Below are positions 2,511-33,178 of a DNA stretch of 38,658 nt, piece by piece. Numbering within the stretch: position 1 is the first letter of the stretch; each line of letters opens with the position of its first letter. Made by a program: the position numbers and the translations under genes. The notes beneath the pieces are model-generated. The model ran no database searches. It worked only from the letters and a program-made list of their open reading frames with translations, and was not told where the DNA came from. This DNA is from a virus: UHGV virus genome UHGV-0206453; one strand, 5' to 3'.

Positions 2511-3227
<717 letters not shown>

Positions 3228-3233
3228 TTAAAT

Positions 3234-3299
3234 CTATCACCGCAAGGGATAAATATCTAACACCGTGCGTGTTGACTATTTTACCTCTAGCGGTGATAA
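3234..3299. promoter_or_regulatory. oR3-oR2-oR1 operators with divergent pRM and pR promoters
   Basis: TATCACCGCAAGGGATA, TAACACCGTGCGTGTTG, TACCTCTAGCGGTGATA; pR -35 TTGACT and -10 GATAAT; GGAGG RBS before cro. Confidence 0.85.
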
Positions 3300-3315
3300 T
3301 AGTTGCATGTACTAA

Positions 3316-3525
<210 letters not shown>

Positions 3526-3532
3526 ATAACCC

Positions 3533-3563
3533 CGCTCTTACACATTCCAGCCCTGAAAAAGGG
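3533..3563 (+). promoter_or_regulatory. nutR (boxA CGCTCTTA, boxB GCCCTGAAAAAGGGC)
   Basis: Canonical lambda nutR boxA/boxB directly after cro stop. Confidence 0.75.
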
Positions 3564-3643
3564 CATCAAATTAAACCACACCTATGGTGTATGCATTTAT
3601 TTGCATACATTCAATCAATTGTTATCTAAGGAAATACTTACAT

Positions 3644-3937
3644 ATGGTTCGTGCAAACAAACGCAACGAGGCTCTACGAATCGAGAGTGCGTTGCTTAAC
3701 AAAATCGCAATGCTTGGAACTGAGAAGACAGCGGAAGCTGTGGGAGTTGATAAGTCGCAGATCAGCAGGTGGAAGAGGGATTGGATTCCAAAGTTCTCAA
3801 TGCTGCTTGCTGTTCTTGAATGGGGCGTCGTCGACGACGATATGGCTCGATTGGCACGACAAGTTGCTTCGATTCTCACCAATAAAAAACGCCCGGCGGC
3901 AACCGAGCGTTCTGATCAAATACAAATGGAATTTTAA
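3644..3937 (+). CDS. cII: cII transcriptional activator
   Basis: Internal ATG of ORF 3584..3937; MVRANKRNEALRIESALLNKIAMLGTEKTAEAVGVDKSQISRWKRDW... matches lambda cII. Confidence 0.95.
   Translation: MVRANKRNEALRIESALLNKIAMLGTEKTAEAVGVDKSQISRWKRDWIPKFSMLLAVLEWGVVDDDMARLARQVASILTNKKRPAATERSDQIQMEF
3652..3665 (-). promoter_or_regulatory. pRE cII-binding motif TTGC-N6-TTGC
   Basis: Plus-strand GCAAACAAACGCAA inside cII codons 3-7 equals minus-strand TTGCGTTTGTTTGC, as at lambda pRE. Confidence 0.55.
3881..3909 (-). terminator. oop-type antisense RNA terminator inside 3' end of cII
   Basis: Minus-strand GC-rich hairpin (CGCTCGGTTGCCGCCGGGCG) followed by TTTTTTATT, as in lambda oop; the oop promoter side has diverged. 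Confidence 0.5.
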
Positions 3938-25237: not shown

Positions 25238-26533
25238 ATGGCTACTTGGCAAAGAACAAACGGCGGATTGTTGGCTGGTATCGGCGGCGTCAACTCAAAC
25301 GCTCCGAGCGTAAATGACATCGGCAATACGCTTCAGCTTATCAGGCAGAACAATGATATTGAGCGTTCAGGCGCTAACAATGTTGGGCTGACTGCTTTGC
25401 AAGGCCTTTCAGGTATTGCGGTGGTGTTTCAGCAGGAAAAGCAGGCTCAGCGGCAGAAAGAATTTCAGCAGGCATACGCTAATGCTTATGCGTCTGGTGA
25501 TCGCGGTGCTTTGCGTCAGTTGGCTACTCAATATCCAGAACAGATTGAATCCGTTCGTAAAGGCATGGGATTCATTGATGAAGATCAGCGTAATTCTATC
25601 GGCACCTTAGCGGCTGGCGCACGCCTTGCGTCATCGTCTCCAGAAGCAATGCAATCATGGCTGCAAAACAACGCCAAGGAACTGGCGCGCGTCGGTGTTG
25701 ACCCTAACAACGTTGCTCAGATGTATCAGCAGAATCCTTCAGGATTTGGTGAGTTTGTTGATCACCTTGGAATGGCTGCTCTTGGCCCGATTGACTACTT
25801 CAATGTTCAGGACAAGATGGCTGGTCGTGAAATTGACCGAGGCAGGCTGGCAGAGACAATCCGCAGCAATCAGGCTGGAGAAGCACTAACAGCTCGTGGT
25901 CAGGACATCCAGATACGTGGACAGAACATCAGCGCACAGAATGCTGCTCTTTCCCGCGAAATACAAAGAGCAGAATTACAAGAAAAGGCTCTGGACAGAC
26001 AGATAGCCAGAGAAAGCAATCAGTTAAAGCTTGAAGAGCTAAAACAGAAACAGGCAGATGTTCGGCAAAAGGCTGACATAGCCCGCGCTGACAGGCAGGC
26101 CGCCGCTCAGGGTGCAGTTGATACGTTCAGCACCGCGCTTGATTCTCTCAACGAGATAGAGCAAAGCCCCGGCCTTTCAAAAGCAGTAGGAATTCGCTCA
26201 GCGTTTCCGACAGTTCCTGGCTCTGATGCGGCTAACTTTGAAGCAAGGCTCGACACCTTTAAAGCTCAAACATTCCTTCCTATGGTGCAGTCTCTGAAGG
26301 GTATGGGCGCTCTTTCAGATGCTGAGGGTAAAAAATTATCCGATGCGGTTGGTGCCCTAAGCCCCAAAATGAGTGAAAAGGCTTTTCGTGACTCTATCGG
26401 AAAGATTAGAAATCAGCTTGAAAGCAAGTTGAGCACTGTTAAAAAACAGTTTGATTATCAGGAGCCGGTGCAGAATATGCCAGGGCAACAATCTACTACT
26501 GGCAGTAACTTTTCTTCACTATGGGGTGATTAA
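25238..26533 (+). CDS. ejection protein (P22 gp20-like)
   Basis: 431 aa, position and composition. Confidence 0.7.
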   Translation: MATWQRTNGGLLAGIGGVNSNAPSVNDIGNTLQLIRQNNDIERSGANNVGLTALQGLSGIAVVFQQEKQAQRQKEFQQAYANAYASGDRGALRQLATQYPEQIESVRKGMGFIDEDQRNSIGTLAAGARLASSSPEAMQSWLQNNAKELARVGVDPNNVAQMYQQNPSGFGEFVDHLGMAALGPIDYFNVQDKMAGREIDRGRLAETIRSNQAGEALTARGQDIQIRGQNISAQNAALSREIQRAELQEKALDRQIARESNQLKLEELKQKQADVRQKADIARADRQAAAQGAVDTFSTALDSLNEIEQSPGLSKAVGIRSAFPTVPGSDAANFEARLDTFKAQTFLPMVQSLKGMGALSDAEGKKLSDAVGALSPKMSEKAFRDSIGKIRNQLESKLSTVKKQFDYQEPVQNMPGQQSTTGSNFSSLWGD

Positions 26534-28530
26534 TGGCTAAAGCATGGAAAGATGTTATCGCCTCTCCACAGTATCAGGCGTTAGCACCAGAACAAAAAGC
26601 GCAGGCTCAGGAGCAATACTTCAATGAAGTCGTGGCCCCGCAAGCCGGAGAAAATGCAGAGCAGGCTAAGCAAGCTTTCTATGCTGCCTATCCATTGCCA
26701 TCTGTGCAGCCAGTGGAGACACAACAACCAGAAGCACAGCAACAACCACAGCAAAGTGGATTTATGTCTGATCTTGGTGAAGCCGTGAAAGAAACTGGTC
26801 GCGGACTGGTGCAGGCTGGCGTGAACGTGGCAAACATACCTGCATCAGTTGCCGATGCTGTAACAAGCGCGGCGGCATGGGCTGGCGGTAAACTCGGTAT
26901 TGGCGATGGTACATATCAACCAGCGCCACGAGTAACAACGCAGGGATTAGAGCAGGACTTTGGCCTTCAGCAAGGTGCGCTGACTCCACAAACGACAGAG
27001 GGAAGGGTATTTGCTGAAGCATTGCCTTACCTCACTCCTGCTGGCGTTGAGAGAGCGGCGGTACAGGCACCAACACTTGCTGGTCGAATTACTCAGGGGG
27101 CAACTCGCCTTCTAGCAGAAAACGCAGTTGGATCACTTGCTGCAAATAGTGCGAAAGATGATGCGGAAGCACTCGCCACCGATTTAGGCGTTGGTGTACT
27201 TGCTGGCGGTGCTATTAACGCTGCCGGACGTGGATTAGGTGCAGCTTATCGTGGCGTTCGTGGTGCTATCGCGCCAGAAGCGCAGCAGGCTATCAGATTT
27301 GCAGAGCGTGAAGGAGTTCCTCTGCACACCACAGACCTGTTACAACCGACTTCCCGCATCGGGAAAATGGCGCAAACGACAGCAGAAAATATCCCTCTGG
27401 CTGGAACAAGCGGAATGAGAGCAACGCAACAGGAAGCGAGAAGCCAGTTGGTTCAGAGATTTGCTGATAAATTCGGTGAGTATGATCCAGCGGTTGTTAT
27501 TGACAGCCTTAAAGCGAAAACATCAGGAATTCGTCGCGCCGCCGGCAATCGACTGGAGCAGGTTCAGAATGCTATGGCTGGAGTAAACATTCAGCCTGCG
27601 CGAGCAATTCAGCAGATTGATACAGAAATATCTAACCTGCAGAAGCTTGGTAAGGTTGCTGATAACGAGACTATTTCAAAACTTCAGTCATATCGTGATG
27701 AGCTTGTTCGCAATGCTGGCCCTGATGGTCCGGTAAATCTGGATTTGAAGCAATTAAGCGACCTGCGCAGCCAGTTCAGAATGGACGTGAAGGGTGAGCG
27801 ACCAGTGTTACCAAACCGTTCCGATGCCGCCATTCAGCGCGTTTACAAGGCAATGACTGACGATATCAATGGTGCCATTGGTCAGAATCTTGGCAACGAT
27901 ACTCTCCGTAAATATCAGCAGGCCAATGCCGTCTACGCTGACGAAGCGGCGAAACTAAAGAATACCAGGCTGAAGAATGTTCTCATGAAAGGCGACCTGA
28001 CGCCGGAAGTTGTCAACAACATGCTATTCAGCAAGAACAAATCGGAAATTAAGACGCTGTATAACTCAGTTGGTCGTGTTGGCAGGGCGCAAATGCGCAA
28101 TGGCATCATTGGAAAGGCGATGGAGAAATCAGGTGGTTCCCCTGACCAGTTCCTTCGACAGCTTAACATCCTGCAAGACCAGACTGGCATCACATTTAAA
28201 GGTCAGGATGCTGCTTATCTGAAAGGATTGAAAAACTACCTGCAATCCACGCAGCAGGCTGCAAAAGCGGCAGTAACAACACCAACAGGGCAGCAAACCA
28301 TCCCGTTCATTATCGGATATGGGACGGCAATGAACCCGGCGACAACTGGTGCAGCAGTAAGCTACGGACTTCTTACTCGCGCCTATGAGAGCGAACCATT
28401 CAGAAATGCAATGCTCCGAATGGCAAATACCCCACGCGGATCAACATCGTTTGAGAAAGCCATGCAGCAGGCGCAAAAGGCCATTAACGCCCTGACTCAG
28501 GGTGCCAAGTCTGATGCGTTGTCATGGTAA
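26533..28530 (+). CDS. ejection protein (P22 gp16-like)
   Basis: 665 aa, last gene before tailspike as in P22. Confidence 0.7.
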   Translation: MAKAWKDVIASPQYQALAPEQKAQAQEQYFNEVVAPQAGENAEQAKQAFYAAYPLPSVQPVETQQPEAQQQPQQSGFMSDLGEAVKETGRGLVQAGVNVANIPASVADAVTSAAAWAGGKLGIGDGTYQPAPRVTTQGLEQDFGLQQGALTPQTTEGRVFAEALPYLTPAGVERAAVQAPTLAGRITQGATRLLAENAVGSLAANSAKDDAEALATDLGVGVLAGGAINAAGRGLGAAYRGVRGAIAPEAQQAIRFAEREGVPLHTTDLLQPTSRIGKMAQTTAENIPLAGTSGMRATQQEARSQLVQRFADKFGEYDPAVVIDSLKAKTSGIRRAAGNRLEQVQNAMAGVNIQPARAIQQIDTEISNLQKLGKVADNETISKLQSYRDELVRNAGPDGPVNLDLKQLSDLRSQFRMDVKGERPVLPNRSDAAIQRVYKAMTDDINGAIGQNLGNDTLRKYQQANAVYADEAAKLKNTRLKNVLMKGDLTPEVVNNMLFSKNKSEIKTLYNSVGRVGRAQMRNGIIGKAMEKSGGSPDQFLRQLNILQDQTGITFKGQDAAYLKGLKNYLQSTQQAAKAAVTTPTGQQTIPFIIGYGTAMNPATTGAAVSYGLLTRAYESEPFRNAMLRMANTPRGSTSFEKAMQQAQKAINALTQGAKSDALSW

Positions 28531-28590
28531 TGTAGATGTAAATTACAGTTAAAAATTAAATTGCTATGGAGTTGATTGAGCTTTTTGCTT

Positions 28591-28618
28591 ACATTAATGC
28601 AAATTTCTGCATTAATGT
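28591..28618. promoter_or_regulatory. perfect palindrome ACATTAATGCA-N6-TGCATTAATGT upstream of tailspike
   Basis: 11-bp perfect inverted arms in the AT-rich gp16-tailspike intergenic region; operator-like. Confidence 0.35.
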
Positions 28619-28720
28619 GTGTTTAATATGAATAGAAGATCATTTTTCAAATCAATAGCGTCATTTGTAGCATTAACTCCATTATCTTCTTTATCAAACA
28701 TGTCTAATAGGATTGCACAC

Positions 28721-31099
28721 ATGACTAATATAACACCAAATGTGGTTATAGGAATGCCTTCGCAACTCTTCACTATGGCGCGTTCTTTTAAAGCCGTAGC
28801 CAATGGCAAAATTTATATCGGTAAAATTGATACTGACCCGGTAAATCCTGAAAACCAGATTCAGGTTTATGTAGAGAACGAAGACGGTTCTCACATTCCT
28901 GTTGCACAGCCAATCATCATTAACGCTGGCGGATATCCGGTATATAACGGACAGATTGCCAAATTCGTTACTGTACAGGGCCATTCTATGGCTGTTTATG
29001 ATGCGTATGGTGCACAGCAGTTTTATTTTCCGAATACGCTGAAGTACGATCCAGATCAATTTAGCTACCAACTTTCATCTGCAAATGGTGCATATCTTGT
29101 TGGTTATGCAACGTCAACTGTTGGTGATTCACTTGATGATATTAATAATGGAAAAATAGTTACCAGTTTTGTGTCAGATTTGAATGCTGATAATAGGGAT
29201 ATTATTTTCGGGCAAACAGGTAATGTATATATACCAAGTAATATAACAGTAAGATGCAACCTTCTTCCTGACGATGACGTAACAAAATTAACTGGAGAAG
29301 GAAAAATTCTCACCAGAGATCCATGGGGGAATGAGCACATATTTGATGTTGGATTGGCAACTCATGGCAGTAAATTTACATGCAGTGGTGTTATTAATCA
29401 ACATGCCAGATTGAATGAATTATGTAGAGTTGGAATTGTTGGAGACTCAATCACTGACGGCGCATACGGTGCTGGATGGTCAGCTAATCCAACCGATTCT
29501 AATGGTGACCTATCTTCAACTAACTACGATCACAATAGTAATGGTGGTTCAGGTTCTTGGTTTCGCACATTTACCGACTGGCTTAACCGATTTACTAAAA
29601 ATAGTGCTTACATATTTAAGGCTGAAAACTGCGCATCTTCTGGAAAGCGACTCATTGACGGGTGGGCTAATCGTAACTTCGATCATGGATTTTTCAAAAA
29701 TACAGCATACGGAAATACCGCACCGGATGTGTGTTTTCTTTCAATGGGCGTAAATGATAATGGGCAGATTGATAGCATTGGATTTGATCAGTATCTATAT
29801 CGTTTCGAGCAATTTATTCGCAAAGCTTGGGGTTATGGATGCGCTGTCTGTGTCGTCTCAATGAACCAAAATGGATCACAATGGGGAGCCCTTGAAGCAT
29901 CAATTAAGAAGAGCATTGAAAGATTGATGCCTGCTGTAGAGTTTCTTGACCTATCACAGGCGGTTACAGATATGTACAGAGATGTTGGCAGTCACACTCT
30001 TCAGGAAATAGCTCGTAGACCTACAGATGGGACTTTTGATGCCACGCATTTTGCGCCTCTTGGACACCAATATATTGGTGCTTATGCCGCAAAGGAATTT
30101 ATGCCTTATCGAGTTCATATTGCGAAGAATGGTAACAACTTCGTACCGAATGTTGATAATGATATACAGGCTATCGGTTACCCTTCAGGCGCTATTTACA
30201 GCGTTAGCATGGAGAGATTGAGCGGTAACACATATCTTAATGGAATAACAGGGTGGGGAACGATAAAACCATCATCTGAAAATGTTACTATCCGTTACTT
30301 TATCTGGTGCGATACATCAGATTTATCAATGGTTATTTTCGAGCCTTATAACCCTTCCTATGTTACTGATGGCCGAGCCAACTCATTTTCAGTTATAGAG
30401 CAAGACATTCGTAATGGCGTATATATATCTGGCAACATTGCAAGCAACGGGATTGCGTCATTTACAAACAAGTTGACAACGAGAACAACAACCCTCAAAA
30501 AAGGATTGAATCAGATAGAAGTTATTTATGATGGTTCCCCATCAAAAGTATATCCACCAGGGCTGTTGTTTAGAGGAGATTTGAAAGAGTCATGCTCGCA
30601 AAATGCTTCAGTGTATCTTGCTGAAAATGCAATAAAAGGAGTATATGGGCAGGTAAGGGATAGAGCTGATTTGTTATTGTCGTATGCGGCAGAAACTGCT
30701 AATGATGAATCTCCTGATATGTATGGTGCAACTAAATCACCAAATGTTCAAAATGTTGCTTTATCATCAATTCCTGTTGGCTGCGGAGTGGTTTTTTACT
30801 ATAAACCTTCTTCACAAAGCGGAGTTGTTGCAAAGAGAACTTCAACTGGAATTGAGATTTCAACAATGCTTTTCGGCGAACTAACAGTTGTTGGAACTTT
30901 AACATGTGATGTTACAGGGGAAGTAATGCTCACAGCTAGTTTGAATGGCTTAACTCCCACAATAACAGTTAAGCCAACTACTGGTGCAACTGTTACTAAT
31001 CCTGTTCCCGGTTTCTCTGGTGGAAAAATAGCTCTAATAAACAAAGGAGCAAGTGGAAAAACATTATCTGTGAAATATTCTTCACACTATATTATTTAA
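28721..31099 (+). CDS. tailspike: P22-type head-binding N-domain fused to SGNH/GDSL esterase-type receptor domain
   Basis: Internal ATG of ORF 28619..31099; N-terminus [38 protein letters not shown] matches P22 gp9 head-binding domain; SGNH blocks [21 protein letters not shown]. Confidence 0.85.
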
Positions 31100-31162
31100 A
31101 CAAATACACACAAAGCTTGCACTGAATTGCAAGGCTTTGTGCTATTCGATAGTTAAGGTGGA

Positions 31163-32320
31163 TCACTCCACCTTTTCATCAAGCCAATCCGCCCACCATT
31201 GCATCATTTCTCTGCGCTTATCGAGATACTGAGCATGGTTGTAAATTCCACGTACAGATCCGCCGTTGGCATGTGCCAGTTGCACTTCAATGGCGTCGGC
31301 AGGCCATTCGTGCTCGTTCATAATCGTGCTGAATTCATGCCTGAATCCGTGACCGCTTTCCAGACCCTCATAGCCGATTTGTTTGATCACAAGCAGTACC
31401 GCGTTCTCGCAGATTGGCTTCTTCTTATCGTTGCGCCCGGCAAAAACAAACTCTGATACAGGCTTGGTGATTGAGCTTAGCGTAGTGAGAAGTTCAACTA
31501 CCTGGTCTGACATAGGAACCACATGAATTTTGCGTCCCTTCATCACACTGGCGTCAATGGTGATAATCCTGTTTTCAAAATCGACGTTCTTCCATAGCAT
31601 GGAACGAAGCTCTTTTGTTCTTAGGGCTGTGTAGCGCAAAACTTTAGTCGCAATGAGCGATACGATGCTTCCTGAAAATGTTGCCAGTGCTTTGTTGAAT
31701 GCAGGGATCTGGTCTGCAGGAAGAAACGGGAAGTTCTTCTTGCGGTATCCTTTCATGGCGTCTGCAAGGTCAGGTGCCGGGTTATATTTAGCCCTTCCGG
31801 TGACAATAGCGTAACGGAAAACCTCTCCGCATCTTCTGCGGGCTTTGTTGGCTCGCTCCATTGCACCGCGATCTTCAAATCTGCGGATTACTTCCAGCAG
31901 TTGCATCGGCTCAATATCCTGAATTTCAAGGCCGCCGATGATAGGTAAAATGTCGTCATCAAACATTTTTGCAAGTTCAGTCGCATACCCTACTGACCAT
32001 ACTTGCTTCTTGTGCTCGTACCATTCCTTGTAAATCGCACTAAAGGAATTGTTGTTAGACGAAGCCTTTTTCGCCTTTACCGGATCGATGCCAACCGAGA
32101 TGTCTTTCCTCGCAGTCCATGCTTTATCCCTTGCCTCTTGCAAAGTCATAAGCGGATATTTTCCGACGGTCAGGATTTTCTCCTTACCGTCAATCTTGTA
32201 GCGAAGCTGCCATACCTTTTTCCCGGATACAGGGACATAAAGGTACAGGCCATTACCATCGAGAAGGCGGTATGGTTTTTCTTTCGGCTTTGCTGCTTCA
32301 ATCTGCTTAACGGTGAGCAT
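31163..32320 (-). CDS. int: tyrosine integrase, P4-like family (N-terminal arm-binding domain)
   Basis: ATG at 32320 within ORF 31163..32356 (alternative GTG at 32356); LTVKQIEAAKP N-terminus; catalytic motifs HGFRH, LAHANGGSVRGIYNH. Confidence 0.9.
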   Translation of the reverse strand: MLTVKQIEAAKPKEKPYRLLDGNGLYLYVPVSGKKVWQLRYKIDGKEKILTVGKYPLMTLQEARDKAWTARKDISVGIDPVKAKKASSNNNSFSAIYKEWYEHKKQVWSVGYATELAKMFDDDILPIIGGLEIQDIEPMQLLEVIRRFEDRGAMERANKARRRCGEVFRYAIVTGRAKYNPAPDLADAMKGYRKKNFPFLPADQIPAFNKALATFSGSIVSLIATKVLRYTALRTKELRSMLWKNVDFENRIITIDASVMKGRKIHVVPMSDQVVELLTTLSSITKPVSEFVFAGRNDKKKPICENAVLLVIKQIGYEGLESGHGFRHEFSTIMNEHEWPADAIEVQLAHANGGSVRGIYNHAQYLDKRREMMQWWADWLDEKVE

Positions 32321-32575
32321 GGGTAAAAATCCGGTGGGTAAAATTATTTTATCCACTTTTTACCCGTCACGGAGTGCGGCTGTCAACGATCTGACGCGAA
32401 CCATTACGAACTGTGAATCTACGGAAGGCTTGATATTCAGGGGATTTTGCGGACTGGTACGGATGGGAGCGAACTGATAAATGGTGTCCCCTGCAGACAT
32501 CTACTTGAAGCAGCAGGGGATTGATTGGAATGGTGTTTTTTAGATGTGAGAAATATTTTACCCGCTATTTTACCC
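32321..32575. other. candidate attP: tRNA-Arg-like 3'-end core flanked by repeated TTTTACCC arm-type motifs
   Basis: Plus TGGTGTCCCCTGCAG (about 32482-32496) is the reverse complement of a tRNA 3' acceptor end plus CCA; five TTTTACCC/GGGTAAAA motifs in both orientations. Confidence 0.55.
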
Positions 32576-32770
32576 ATTGGCGCGGCTTAAGAGCTTATTT
32601 TTGAATTCACAATGGTCACGATATAACCATCTTGCTCGCCCGTGGATAACTTTGGCTTTAGGCAGGTCGCCGGACTTAATCCGGTCATAAATGAAGGTTT
32701 TACCGAAGCCAGTATCGGCCATGATGAATTTCAAATCAACCAGTGAATCAGGCTGTAGTTCGTGTTGCAT
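32570..32770 (-). CDS. AlpA-family excisionase/regulator
   Basis: 66 aa; FIMADTGFGKTFIYDRIKSGDLPKAKVIHGRARW typical AlpA/Xis HTH; GGAGA RBS. Confidence 0.75.
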   Translation of the reverse strand: MQHELQPDSLVDLKFIMADTGFGKTFIYDRIKSGDLPKAKVIHGRARWLYRDHCEFKNKLLSRANG

Positions 32771-32802
32771 GAGTGCTATCTCCGAATAGGGAATCGAACC
32801 TG

Positions 32803-32826
32803 CAAATCAGGCAATAAAAAACCGCC
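32803..32826 (-). terminator. rho-independent terminator upstream of alpA-like gene
   Basis: Minus-strand CCGCC-tgat-GGCGG hairpin followed by TTTTTTAT. Confidence 0.5.
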
Positions 32827-32878
32827 ATCAGGCGGCTTGGTGTTCTTTCAGTTCTTCAATTCGAATATTGGTTACGTC

Positions 32879-33178
32879 TTATTCGATGCGCACTCCTGGT
32901 ATTTCGCCTTTTGATATTGCTAAGTCATAAATTTGCGCGGCACTATACCCATCTCTCATCCATGAATCTAAGGCGCTAACAGCCTCGCTACGCTTTTTAT
33001 CTTCTCTCTCATTTTTGATATCAACGAGGACATCAACGCAATTAAGGCAAATGTGGATTTTGTCCTTACATTCGATCATGGCGGCTTTTCCATGATTTCC
33101 GCCACACAGTGAGCATAAATCTTCAGGGTCTGGCTGGTATTTCTGTAACGTTAGAGGGTTGAATGTTGAACAGACCAT
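32879..33178 (-). CDS. hypothetical Cys-rich protein (about 99 aa)
   Basis: Internal ATG of ORF 32879..33190 with GGAG RBS; CxxC...HxC...CxxC pattern suggests zinc binding. Confidence 0.5.
   Translation of the reverse strand: MVCSTFNPLTLQKYQPDPEDLCSLCGGNHGKAAMIECKDKIHICLNCVDVLVDIKNEREDKKRSEAVSALDSWMRDGYSAAQIYDLAISKGEIPGVRIE

Follow-up and report, generated by a model that had tools for sequence, protein, structure and literature searches.

Genes and sites on either side of attP

On the minus strand of the window, by which we mean the whole 38,658 nucleotides of the virus genome UHGV-0206453, the gene torI, the attP core and the integrase gene int follow each other in this order, so that int and the gene for the recombination directionality factor (RDF) lie on opposite sides of attP (Table 1). 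The integrase is identical to IntS of E. coli K-12 in 385/385 amino acids and matches the Pfam families Arm-DNA-bind_3, Phage_int_M and Phage_integrase. The RDF protein of 66 amino acids is identical to K-12 TorI (66/66), and TorI is the recombination directionality factor of the prophage KplE1/CPS-53 (PMC2951348). A preliminary description of the locus had labelled this gene 'alpA-like'. The label is imprecise, since the protein is TorI, although it has a basis in that some databases name relatives 'AlpA family' transcriptional regulator. In our search the 66-aa protein matched no Pfam family at E <= 1e-3 and thus did not match the AlpA profile (Phage_AlpA) either. The TorI relatives that we found form a narrow family with at least 59% identity; those with a name come almost all from Enterobacterales, and the contexts that we inspected target argW.

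At the nucleotide level, 651 bp around the site (32250-32900) are 99.4% identical to Shigella phage Sf6 and 98% identical to coliphage HK620. When attP was split at the core, the half holding the P arm was found to be 98% identical (329/335) to the attR of K-12 KplE1, and the half holding the P' arm 97% identical (172/177) to its attL. By these identities the region is the attP/int/RDF module known from KplE1, HK620 and Sf6, and the phage that carries it here is a P22-like mosaic; every feature of that module that can be tested from sequence is present. Because the proteins are identical and the attP halves nearly so, the published dissection of KplE1 applies directly. KplE1 (CPS-53) of E. coli K-12 has the same IntS, the same TorI, the same 16-nt core, five GGGTAAAA sites, five TorI pentamers and the promoter PintS. 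It is, however, a 10-kb defective prophage, whereas the window holds the attP (excised) configuration on an apparently complete P22-like genome.

With Sf6 and HK620 the window shares the features annotated there as attP core, arm repeats, pX/PintS, pI, hkaB/gene 17 and hkaC/gene 18. The remainder of the window is a different mosaic from these two phages, with a cI/cro/cII set of the lambda type and a tailspike with a G7C-like esterase, and no phage record covers at least 80% of positions 26000-32300. Sf6, HK620, CUS-3, Kapi1 and IME10 all integrate at argW.

Since attP sits between the two genes, int and torI end up at opposite ends of the prophage. The preliminary description had pointed to this placement of int and the small upstream gene as a departure from P22, and it was right to do so: int and RDF gene at opposite prophage ends are a hallmark of the KplE1-type module (PMC2951348), the split of the two genes across attP has been published as a difference from P22 (PMC2951348, PMC8787464), and the placement has been described again for phage Kapi1. 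The core, the arm-type sites, the TorI sites, PintS and the split of int and RDF gene across attP are all published already, and there is nothing new in them.

Table 1. Features of the recombination locus, with positions in the window
Feature	Position	Strand	Basis or remarks
Integrase gene intS	31163..32320	minus	Tyrosine recombinase with arm-DNA-binding N-terminal domain
P' arm, three putative IntS arm-type sites	32321..32365	minus	Motif positions and identity to KplE1 attL; GGGTAAAA 32365-32358 (P'1), TTTTACCC 32343-32336, TTTTACCC 32328-32321
PintS promoter	32357..32386	minus	-35 TTGACA 32386-32381, -10 TAAAAA 32362-32357
Five putative TorI binding sites in two blocks	32387..32474	minus	Pentamers and arrangement as in PMC2951348; I1 GTTCG 32474-32470, I2 GTCCG 32454-32450, I3 GTTCG 32411-32407, I4 GTTCG 32401-32397, I5 GATCG 32391-32387
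attP core CTGCAGGGGACACCAT	32481..32496	minus	argW nt 61-75 plus one T; published 16-mer
Degenerate in-register T-loop remnant	32497..32505	minus	Adjoins the core on its 5' side; 27 lineages aligned with argW
P arm, two direct putative IntS arm-type sites	32556..32575	minus	GGGTAAAA 32575-32568 and 32563-32556
RDF/excisionase gene torI (hkaC in HK620, gene 18 in Sf6)	32570..32770	minus	RefSeq name torI
Second tRNA-like piece (T-piece) ATTTGCAGGTTCGATTCC	32790..32807	minus	16/16 to argW nt 46-61
HK620-annotated cII site TTGCCTGATTTGC of the putative promoter pI	32802..32814	minus	HK620 annotation, offset +31113
Intrinsic terminator of the upstream 933W L0063-like gene	32812..32838	minus	Mosaic boundary of the recombination module

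The attP core and the T-loop remnant beside it

The sequence CTGCAGGGGACACCA occurs once in the window, on the minus strand at 32482-32496, and equals nt 61-75 of argW. Extended by one T it becomes the 16-nt core that is given for KplE1 in PMC2951348. It covers the 3' strand of the T-stem, the 3' strand of the acceptor stem, the discriminator and the CCA; the K-12 argW gene reads ...AATTGCAGGTTCGATTCCTGCAGGGGACACCA, also given as ...GGGCTAATTGCAGGTTCGATTCCTGCAGGGGACACCA. IntS carries out recombination between this 16-bp core and argW, the host gene for tRNA-Arg(CCU), whose 3' end has the identical sequence (PMC2951348), and the records of Sf6 (AF547987) and HK620 (AF335538) mark the attP core at the equivalent position. 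The attP with an argW-type 3' end as its core, which the preliminary description had read from the letters, is thus a published site. Integrated relatives break at the core, as seen in attL and attR of K-12 and at dozens of attL loci, and matches to E. coli genomes stop at query position 419-421, i.e. at the core. Junctions elsewhere, which had been named as an observation that would speak against this attP, were not seen among the relatives, whose junctions fall exactly at the core. This phage may likewise integrate at argW with its junctions at the core, where its near-identical integrated relatives break.

For the comparison with diverged modules, TorI-family loci were gathered from species-representative genomes, viral contigs and assemblies, and 27 diverged modules were aligned. 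Nearly every one of them has TTCGAT just 5' of the core, in the exact register of the tRNA T-loop and followed, after nnn, by TGCAGGGG. This flank reads TTCGAT-GTA-TGCAGGGG in most lineages, GTAGAT-GTC here (32505-32497) and TTCGAT-TCC in argW. The six T-loop columns TTCGAT agree with argW in 25, 27, 17, 26, 26 and 19 of the 27 lineages, whereas the three nucleotides between TTCGAT and TGCAGGGG never agree with the tRNA (GTA/GTC vs TCC). Read from this alignment, attP copies argW imperfectly but without a break from the T-loop on, and the conserved register of the TTCGAT motif beside the core suggests that IntS or TorI reads it.

ARAGORN found no tRNA gene anywhere in the window, and Rfam gave no tRNA match at E <= 10 over positions 32200-33000, where only sub-threshold sRNA matches appeared. 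The tRNA content of the window amounts to two linear argW fragments, and no cloverleaf was detected.

Arm-type sites, PintS and TorI sites

The window has 8 copies of the octamer TTTTACCC where 0.88 would be expected, and five copies of GGGTAAAA/TTTTACCC lie within 32321-32575 (32321-, 32336-, 32358+, 32556+ and 32568+, the sign giving the strand). In KplE1, the N-terminal domain of IntS binds five GGGTAAAA arm sites; TAAA is common to all P' sites, one of which, P'1, overlaps the -10 element of PintS (PMC2951348). From the motif and the near-identity to the dissected attL and attR of KplE1 we assign three putative arm-type sites to the P' arm and two to the P arm, which bears out the earlier suggestion that the five repeats are arm-type sites and agrees with what is published. 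The P' site at 32328-32321 abuts the ATG of int, the P site at 32575-32568 overlaps the stop codon of torI, and the P arm sites are kept in 27/27 aligned lineages.

The PintS sequence agrees with the experimentally mapped PintS of KplE1, where this promoter, situated within the P' arm, drives int under repression by IntS and TorI (PMC2951348). TorI of KplE1 directs excision and has five sites of the form GTTCG/GTCCG/GATCG between the core and int (PMC2951348); the region holding the five putative TorI sites here is almost identical to KplE1 attL.

A second argW-derived piece upstream of torI

When argW was compared with the window by blastn-short, the best two matches were nt 46-61 (E 5e-4) and nt 61-75 (E 2e-3), so that both fragments that had been suspected of tRNA origin do match argW. 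The remaining argW matches in the window were of at most 11 nt and at chance level, or imperfect (E >= 0.49). The second piece, which we call the T-piece, is an exact 16-mer, TTGCAGGTTCGATTCC, on the minus strand at 32790-32805, while the 18-mer ATTTGCAGGTTCGATTCC, with the additional ATT of the preliminary description, reaches to 32807. The preliminary description had recognised a real tRNA segment, matching argW in 16/16 positions, but had placed it at 32780-32797, about 10 nt off, and it lies partly outside the described region of 32321-32800.

The T-piece spans the end of the variable loop, the 5' strand of the T-stem, the T-loop and the first C of the 3' strand, and it ends 6 nt ahead of the torI Shine-Dalgarno sequence (SD) GGAGA (32783-32779). 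T-piece and core lie on the same strand and in argW order, about 285 nt apart; in argW itself the two abut and have one nucleotide in common. The exact 16-mer together with this adjacency to the core in argW marks the T-piece as apparently argW-specific. In K-12 KplE1 the T-piece is likewise found upstream of torI (L003 10476-10493).

A description of the T-piece as tRNA-derived was not found in the annotations and literature searched, a search that left some primary KplE1 papers and the HK620 and Sf6 genome papers outside, and a literature text search for GGTTCGATTCC with integrase returned nothing relevant. Williams' 2002 scheme of tRNA sublocations is not known to contain a detached T-arm copy ahead of an RDF gene.

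Conservation and copy number of the T-piece

The block (C)AGGTTCGATTCC(C) precedes, by a few nucleotides, the SD of the RDF gene in E. coli, Citrobacter, Serratia, Pantoea, Edwardsiella and Hafnia-type modules. It is shared by the E. coli/Shigella phages and KplE1, and the RDFs of the other modules that carry it are only 74-85% identical. Conservation was assessed on 16 lineages anchored on the motif, using a 14-nt block. Mean pairwise identity, with phylogeny ignored, was 85% for the T-piece block and 95% for GTTCGATT, compared with 29% for the 18 nt upstream, 60% for third codon positions of the RDF gene and 91% for its first and second codon positions. From these values the T-piece looks to be under purifying selection across diverged Enterobacterales modules, and because it is conserved it is probably functional. 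The additional tRNA nucleotides at its ends differ by lineage, with TTG at the 5' end in E. coli and TG at the 3' end in Serratia, which fits one old tRNA-derived segment with a selected centre.

In the viral-contig loci of E. coli, a T-piece stood upstream of torI in 80/80 and was the exact 16-mer in 75/80. Throughout these 80 loci it stays with torI, while the sequence on its other side is exchanged: three different terminators, sometimes with extra genes, are joined to the same T-piece. Phages of the 933W type match positions 32813-32900 only.

Copy number varies among the modules between 0, 1 and 2. Two tandem T-pieces, 16 nt apart, were found at three loci (L124, L125 and L128) and two partial copies at another (L121). 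The T-piece is absent from the Klebsiella phages Chronis and RCIP0114, from Cronobacter, Mixta and several Pantoea modules, and from locus L013, where a clean deletion of 24 nt relative to L012 has removed it. The attP-proximal TTCG is intact in 14/17 lineages with a T-piece vs 1/8 without, counted in this sample with phylogeny ignored. Hafnia-type modules keep the T-piece though their I1/I2 sites read GTTCT/GTCCA. We also considered whether the T-piece tracks the T-stem of the host tRNA and rejected the idea: argW reads TTGCAGG...CCTGC almost everywhere while T-pieces read G/C/A-CAGG, and only the Proteus type differs.

The T-piece as a candidate operator

We asked what a conserved T-arm copy ahead of the excisionase gene might do. 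The T-piece is probably a cis-regulatory site for the module's own proteins. Whether it is more precisely a DNA operator for these proteins, a function assigned at the level of its class, we regard as an even call. Its finer form, a tRNA-derived operator that gates RDF expression either by imitating the left attB half or as a sixth TorI site, we put forward tentatively and hold to be somewhat doubtful. The joint reading, in which the locus is the KplE1/HK620/Sf6 module and carries a separate, selected T-piece as a candidate operator, appears likely to us.

TorI could bind the T-piece through the GTTCG pentamer, which is the pentamer whose mutation abolishes TorI action (PMC2951348). The T-piece contains it within GGTTCG, the same hexamer as in TorI site I4. 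Alternatively, IntS could bind the T-piece as a duplicate of the left attB half; the T-piece is identical to the left flank of attB. Binding of either protein would feed back on expression of the RDF and on read-through into int in the circular phage. IntS and/or TorI would then sense their own levels via the T-piece, and a fragment of the target tRNA would have been recruited to control which way recombination runs throughout a family of Enterobacterales phages.

Several observations weigh against this proposal. GTTCG has a G before it and an A after it in the T-piece, unlike in the I-site consensus (C/A)AGTTCGC. The attL fragment of KplE1, which contains the real argW T-loop, has only five TorI sites, all of them on the other side of the core (PMC2951348), and since this work reports no site in the argW T-loop, TorI may not bind the T-piece sequence. 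Many functional-looking modules without a T-piece likewise count against an operator role, as does its retention in the Hafnia-type modules with GTTCT/GTCCA at I1/I2. A requirement for recombination itself is unlikely for a T-piece some 290 bp from the core; excision of KplE1 in vitro proceeds on attL and attR fragments whose ends are set by published primers (PMC2951348).

Other accounts of the T-piece

The preliminary description had taken the two pieces as parts of a single older attP core, about 32 nt long, which the arrival of the RDF gene and P arm by insertion or exchange had broken in two; on this view the T-piece would be a functionless relic. The adjacency of nt 46-61 and 61-75 in argW, with the same strand, the right order and one common nucleotide, is what such a split would give, and the T-piece does sit at the mosaic boundary of the module. 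Yet in nearly all lineages the stretch from the P arm to the core contains an in-register T-loop remnant of its own. Because attP keeps this remnant, the T-piece is an additional copy and not the split half. The Serratia-type T-piece, which reads CCAGGTTCGATTCCTG, extends to CCTG and overlaps the tRNA coordinates of the core itself; since the copy runs into positions that the core covers, a simple split cannot give it. A relic would also hardly be conserved like non-synonymous codon positions between random flanks, or occur in tandem duplications. As judged from these comparisons the T-piece is a separate second copy of the argW T-arm, and we consider the split quite unlikely. A likeness to tRNA by mere coincidence has a vanishingly small probability in our view. 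Sequences such as the T-loop-like GGTTCGAxTCC are common and carried by every tRNA gene, but here 16/16 positions match, at E 5e-4, the very tRNA that the adjoining core targets, with strand and order in agreement; the next-best argW matches are at chance level, and the motif recurs in diverged modules.

Two further accounts give the T-piece a role in torI or int expression other than that of an operator for IntS or TorI. In one, the T-piece belongs to a cII-activated integration promoter pI and its tRNA likeness is incidental: cII would bind TTGCCTGATTTGC, which overlaps the 5' end of the T-piece, and transcripts starting at or after the torI SD would yield Int without the RDF, as from lambda pI. 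The HK620 record indeed annotates a 'phage integration' promoter at the equivalent of 32777-32815 with its cII site at 32802-32814, Sf6 has pI (and bsq2) there too, and the window encodes a CII of the lambda type with a canonical pRE site, TTGCGTTTGTTTGC, at 3653-3666 beside lambda-like cro and cII. A promoter would also make sense immediately downstream of an intrinsic terminator. These annotations are, however, predictive and not experimental. The repeats read TTGC-N5-TTGC and thereby lack the spacing of TTGC-N6-TTGC that is found in the phage's own pRE and in sites of the lambda type. TTGC-N5/6-TTGC shows no enrichment in the window (11 copies vs 7.4 expected), the first TTGC of the putative half-site is TTAC both in K-12 KplE1 and in roughly a quarter of the E. 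coli loci, and a consensus scan finds no sigma-70 promoter in the T-piece region. In other lineages neither the TTGC repeats nor any -10 element is conserved, while GGTTCGATTCC is. We therefore regard the promoter account as unlikely. In the other account the T-piece acts in the mRNA, where its UUCC end pairs with the torI SD or a hairpin like the T-arm forms, throttling translation of the RDF. Several minimum-free-energy folds of the leaders do pair AUUCC or UUCGA with GGAG, and copies of the Edwardsiella type make a 6-bp hairpin GACAGG...CCUGUC. But the mean probability of an unpaired SD is 0.21, vs 0.28 with the T-piece shuffled; for single lineages the difference seldom exceeds noise, and leaders of the Edwardsiella type show the opposite sign. 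The pairing of the T-stem is not conserved, no covariation is possible, and the conservation of the 5' half AGGTTCG would be left unexplained. We rate this role in the mRNA as very unlikely.

If the T-piece is an operator for TorI or IntS, as we propose, it would be a missing control point for expression of the RDF, which decides between prophage maintenance and excision in the KplE1-type model system, and it would show a tRNA fragment recruited for regulation. What may be new at this locus is only the second, selected copy of the argW T-arm directly upstream of the excisionase gene, and it occurs in many Enterobacterales prophages, including KplE1 of K-12. The analysis also corrects the idea of a split core and calls the N5-spaced 'cII site' of the HK620 and Sf6 annotations into question.

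Comparison with lambda and with integrases that target the T-loop

The attP resembles that of lambda in its hetero-bivalent integrase, in having arm and core sites, in the location of the RDF sites on one arm and in a promoter that has been proposed to provide Int without the RDF. In lambda, however, a shared transcript covers int and xis, which both lie to one side of attP, with pI inside xis, whereas here attP separates int from the RDF gene. Also unlike lambda, the module gives int an autoregulated promoter of its own in the P' arm and targets a tRNA gene at its 3' end. In integrases that target the T-loop, such as that of mycobacteriophage Ms6 (PMC1762012), the T-arm of the tRNA likewise lies within the extended homology of attB and attP, which reads TTCGAT-nnn-TGCAGGGG here. 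Unlike in those systems, the uninterrupted identity used by IntS begins only after the T-loop.

The host phage

The phage is a mosaic of P22-like and lambda parts and is not Sf6 or HK620 itself. Its immunity region is of lambda type: besides cI (237 aa), it encodes a Cro of 66 aa and a protein resembling CII, the latter two of which look lambda-like, and it includes a canonical CII site, TTGCGTTTGTTTGC. The tailspike is itself mosaic, with a P22-type head-binding domain and G7C gp63.1-like domains. It also shows a weak, below-cutoff GDSL/SGNH esterase-like match with the motif GDSITDG, which suggests that the protein deacetylates O-antigen and is not a glycosidase. Window positions 26000-32300 are not covered to 80% or more by any phage record.

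Features of the window discussed here
Feature	Position	Strand
Lambda-type immunity region	2511-3937	
CII site	3653-3666	
Mosaic tailspike gene	28619-31099	+
46-aa ORF (hkaB of HK620, gene 17 of Sf6)	32360-32500	-
Segment holding the three nt between T-loop remnant and core	32497-32505	
STnc130-like match	32720-32847	+

The attP core and its flanks

Between the T-loop remnant, a degenerate argW T-loop copy, and the attP core lie three nucleotides that read GTA or GTC in attP but TCC in argW, the tRNA-Arg(CCU) target gene. Across the 27 aligned loci, none of the lineages agrees with argW at the first two of these. One possibility is that this constant attP/attB difference lies where the strand-exchange region ends; another is that it serves to discriminate C-type from B-type sites. 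In Klebsiella-type modules (phages Chronis, L004, and RCIP0114, L005; attL loci L151, L189, L201 and L206) the core ends in ...GGGGACACTTGT, as opposed to ...GACACCAT otherwise, so that argW is restored in their lysogens without an encoded CCA end.

The core and the TorI sites are covered by the 46-aa ORF, for which no Pfam match was found. Integration would split this ORF, which means that it is either no gene or one expressed from the excised genome only. On the strand opposite the torI 5' end, the T-piece (the second argW T-arm copy) and the terminator, Rfam reported a sub-threshold match to the enterobacterial sRNA STnc130, with 25 bits where the gathering score is 55 (E 0.21). This match is probably due to chance.

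Variation around the T-piece and in other loci

Upstream of the RDF gene, three viral contigs (L124, L125 and L128; about 1455-1490) carry a T-arm-like motif in tandem with a 16-nt period, CAGGTTCGATTCCCGT CAGGTTCGATTCCCAT, while in L121 there are two copies, both partial. In IME10 (L133, 880-1210) and E. coli ET151 (L134, 360-800), additional small genes lie between two intrinsic terminators just upstream of the T-piece. Both insertions are joined at a common TTTTTTATTG sequence, apparently a preferred point for morons to insert.

The typically enterobacterial module, T-piece included, also occurs on contigs attributed to MAGs of Actinomycetes and Parachlamydiaceae (L010, L024), assignments that likely reflect contamination or mis-binning. 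Proteus hauseri (L021, 2492-4067) has a compact layout in which the RDF gene is convergent on int and argW lies right behind int. Its argW differs in both T-stem (ACAGG/CCTGT) and acceptor (GGGAACG), and the phage-side arm carries CTCAGTTCGC repeats in tandem.
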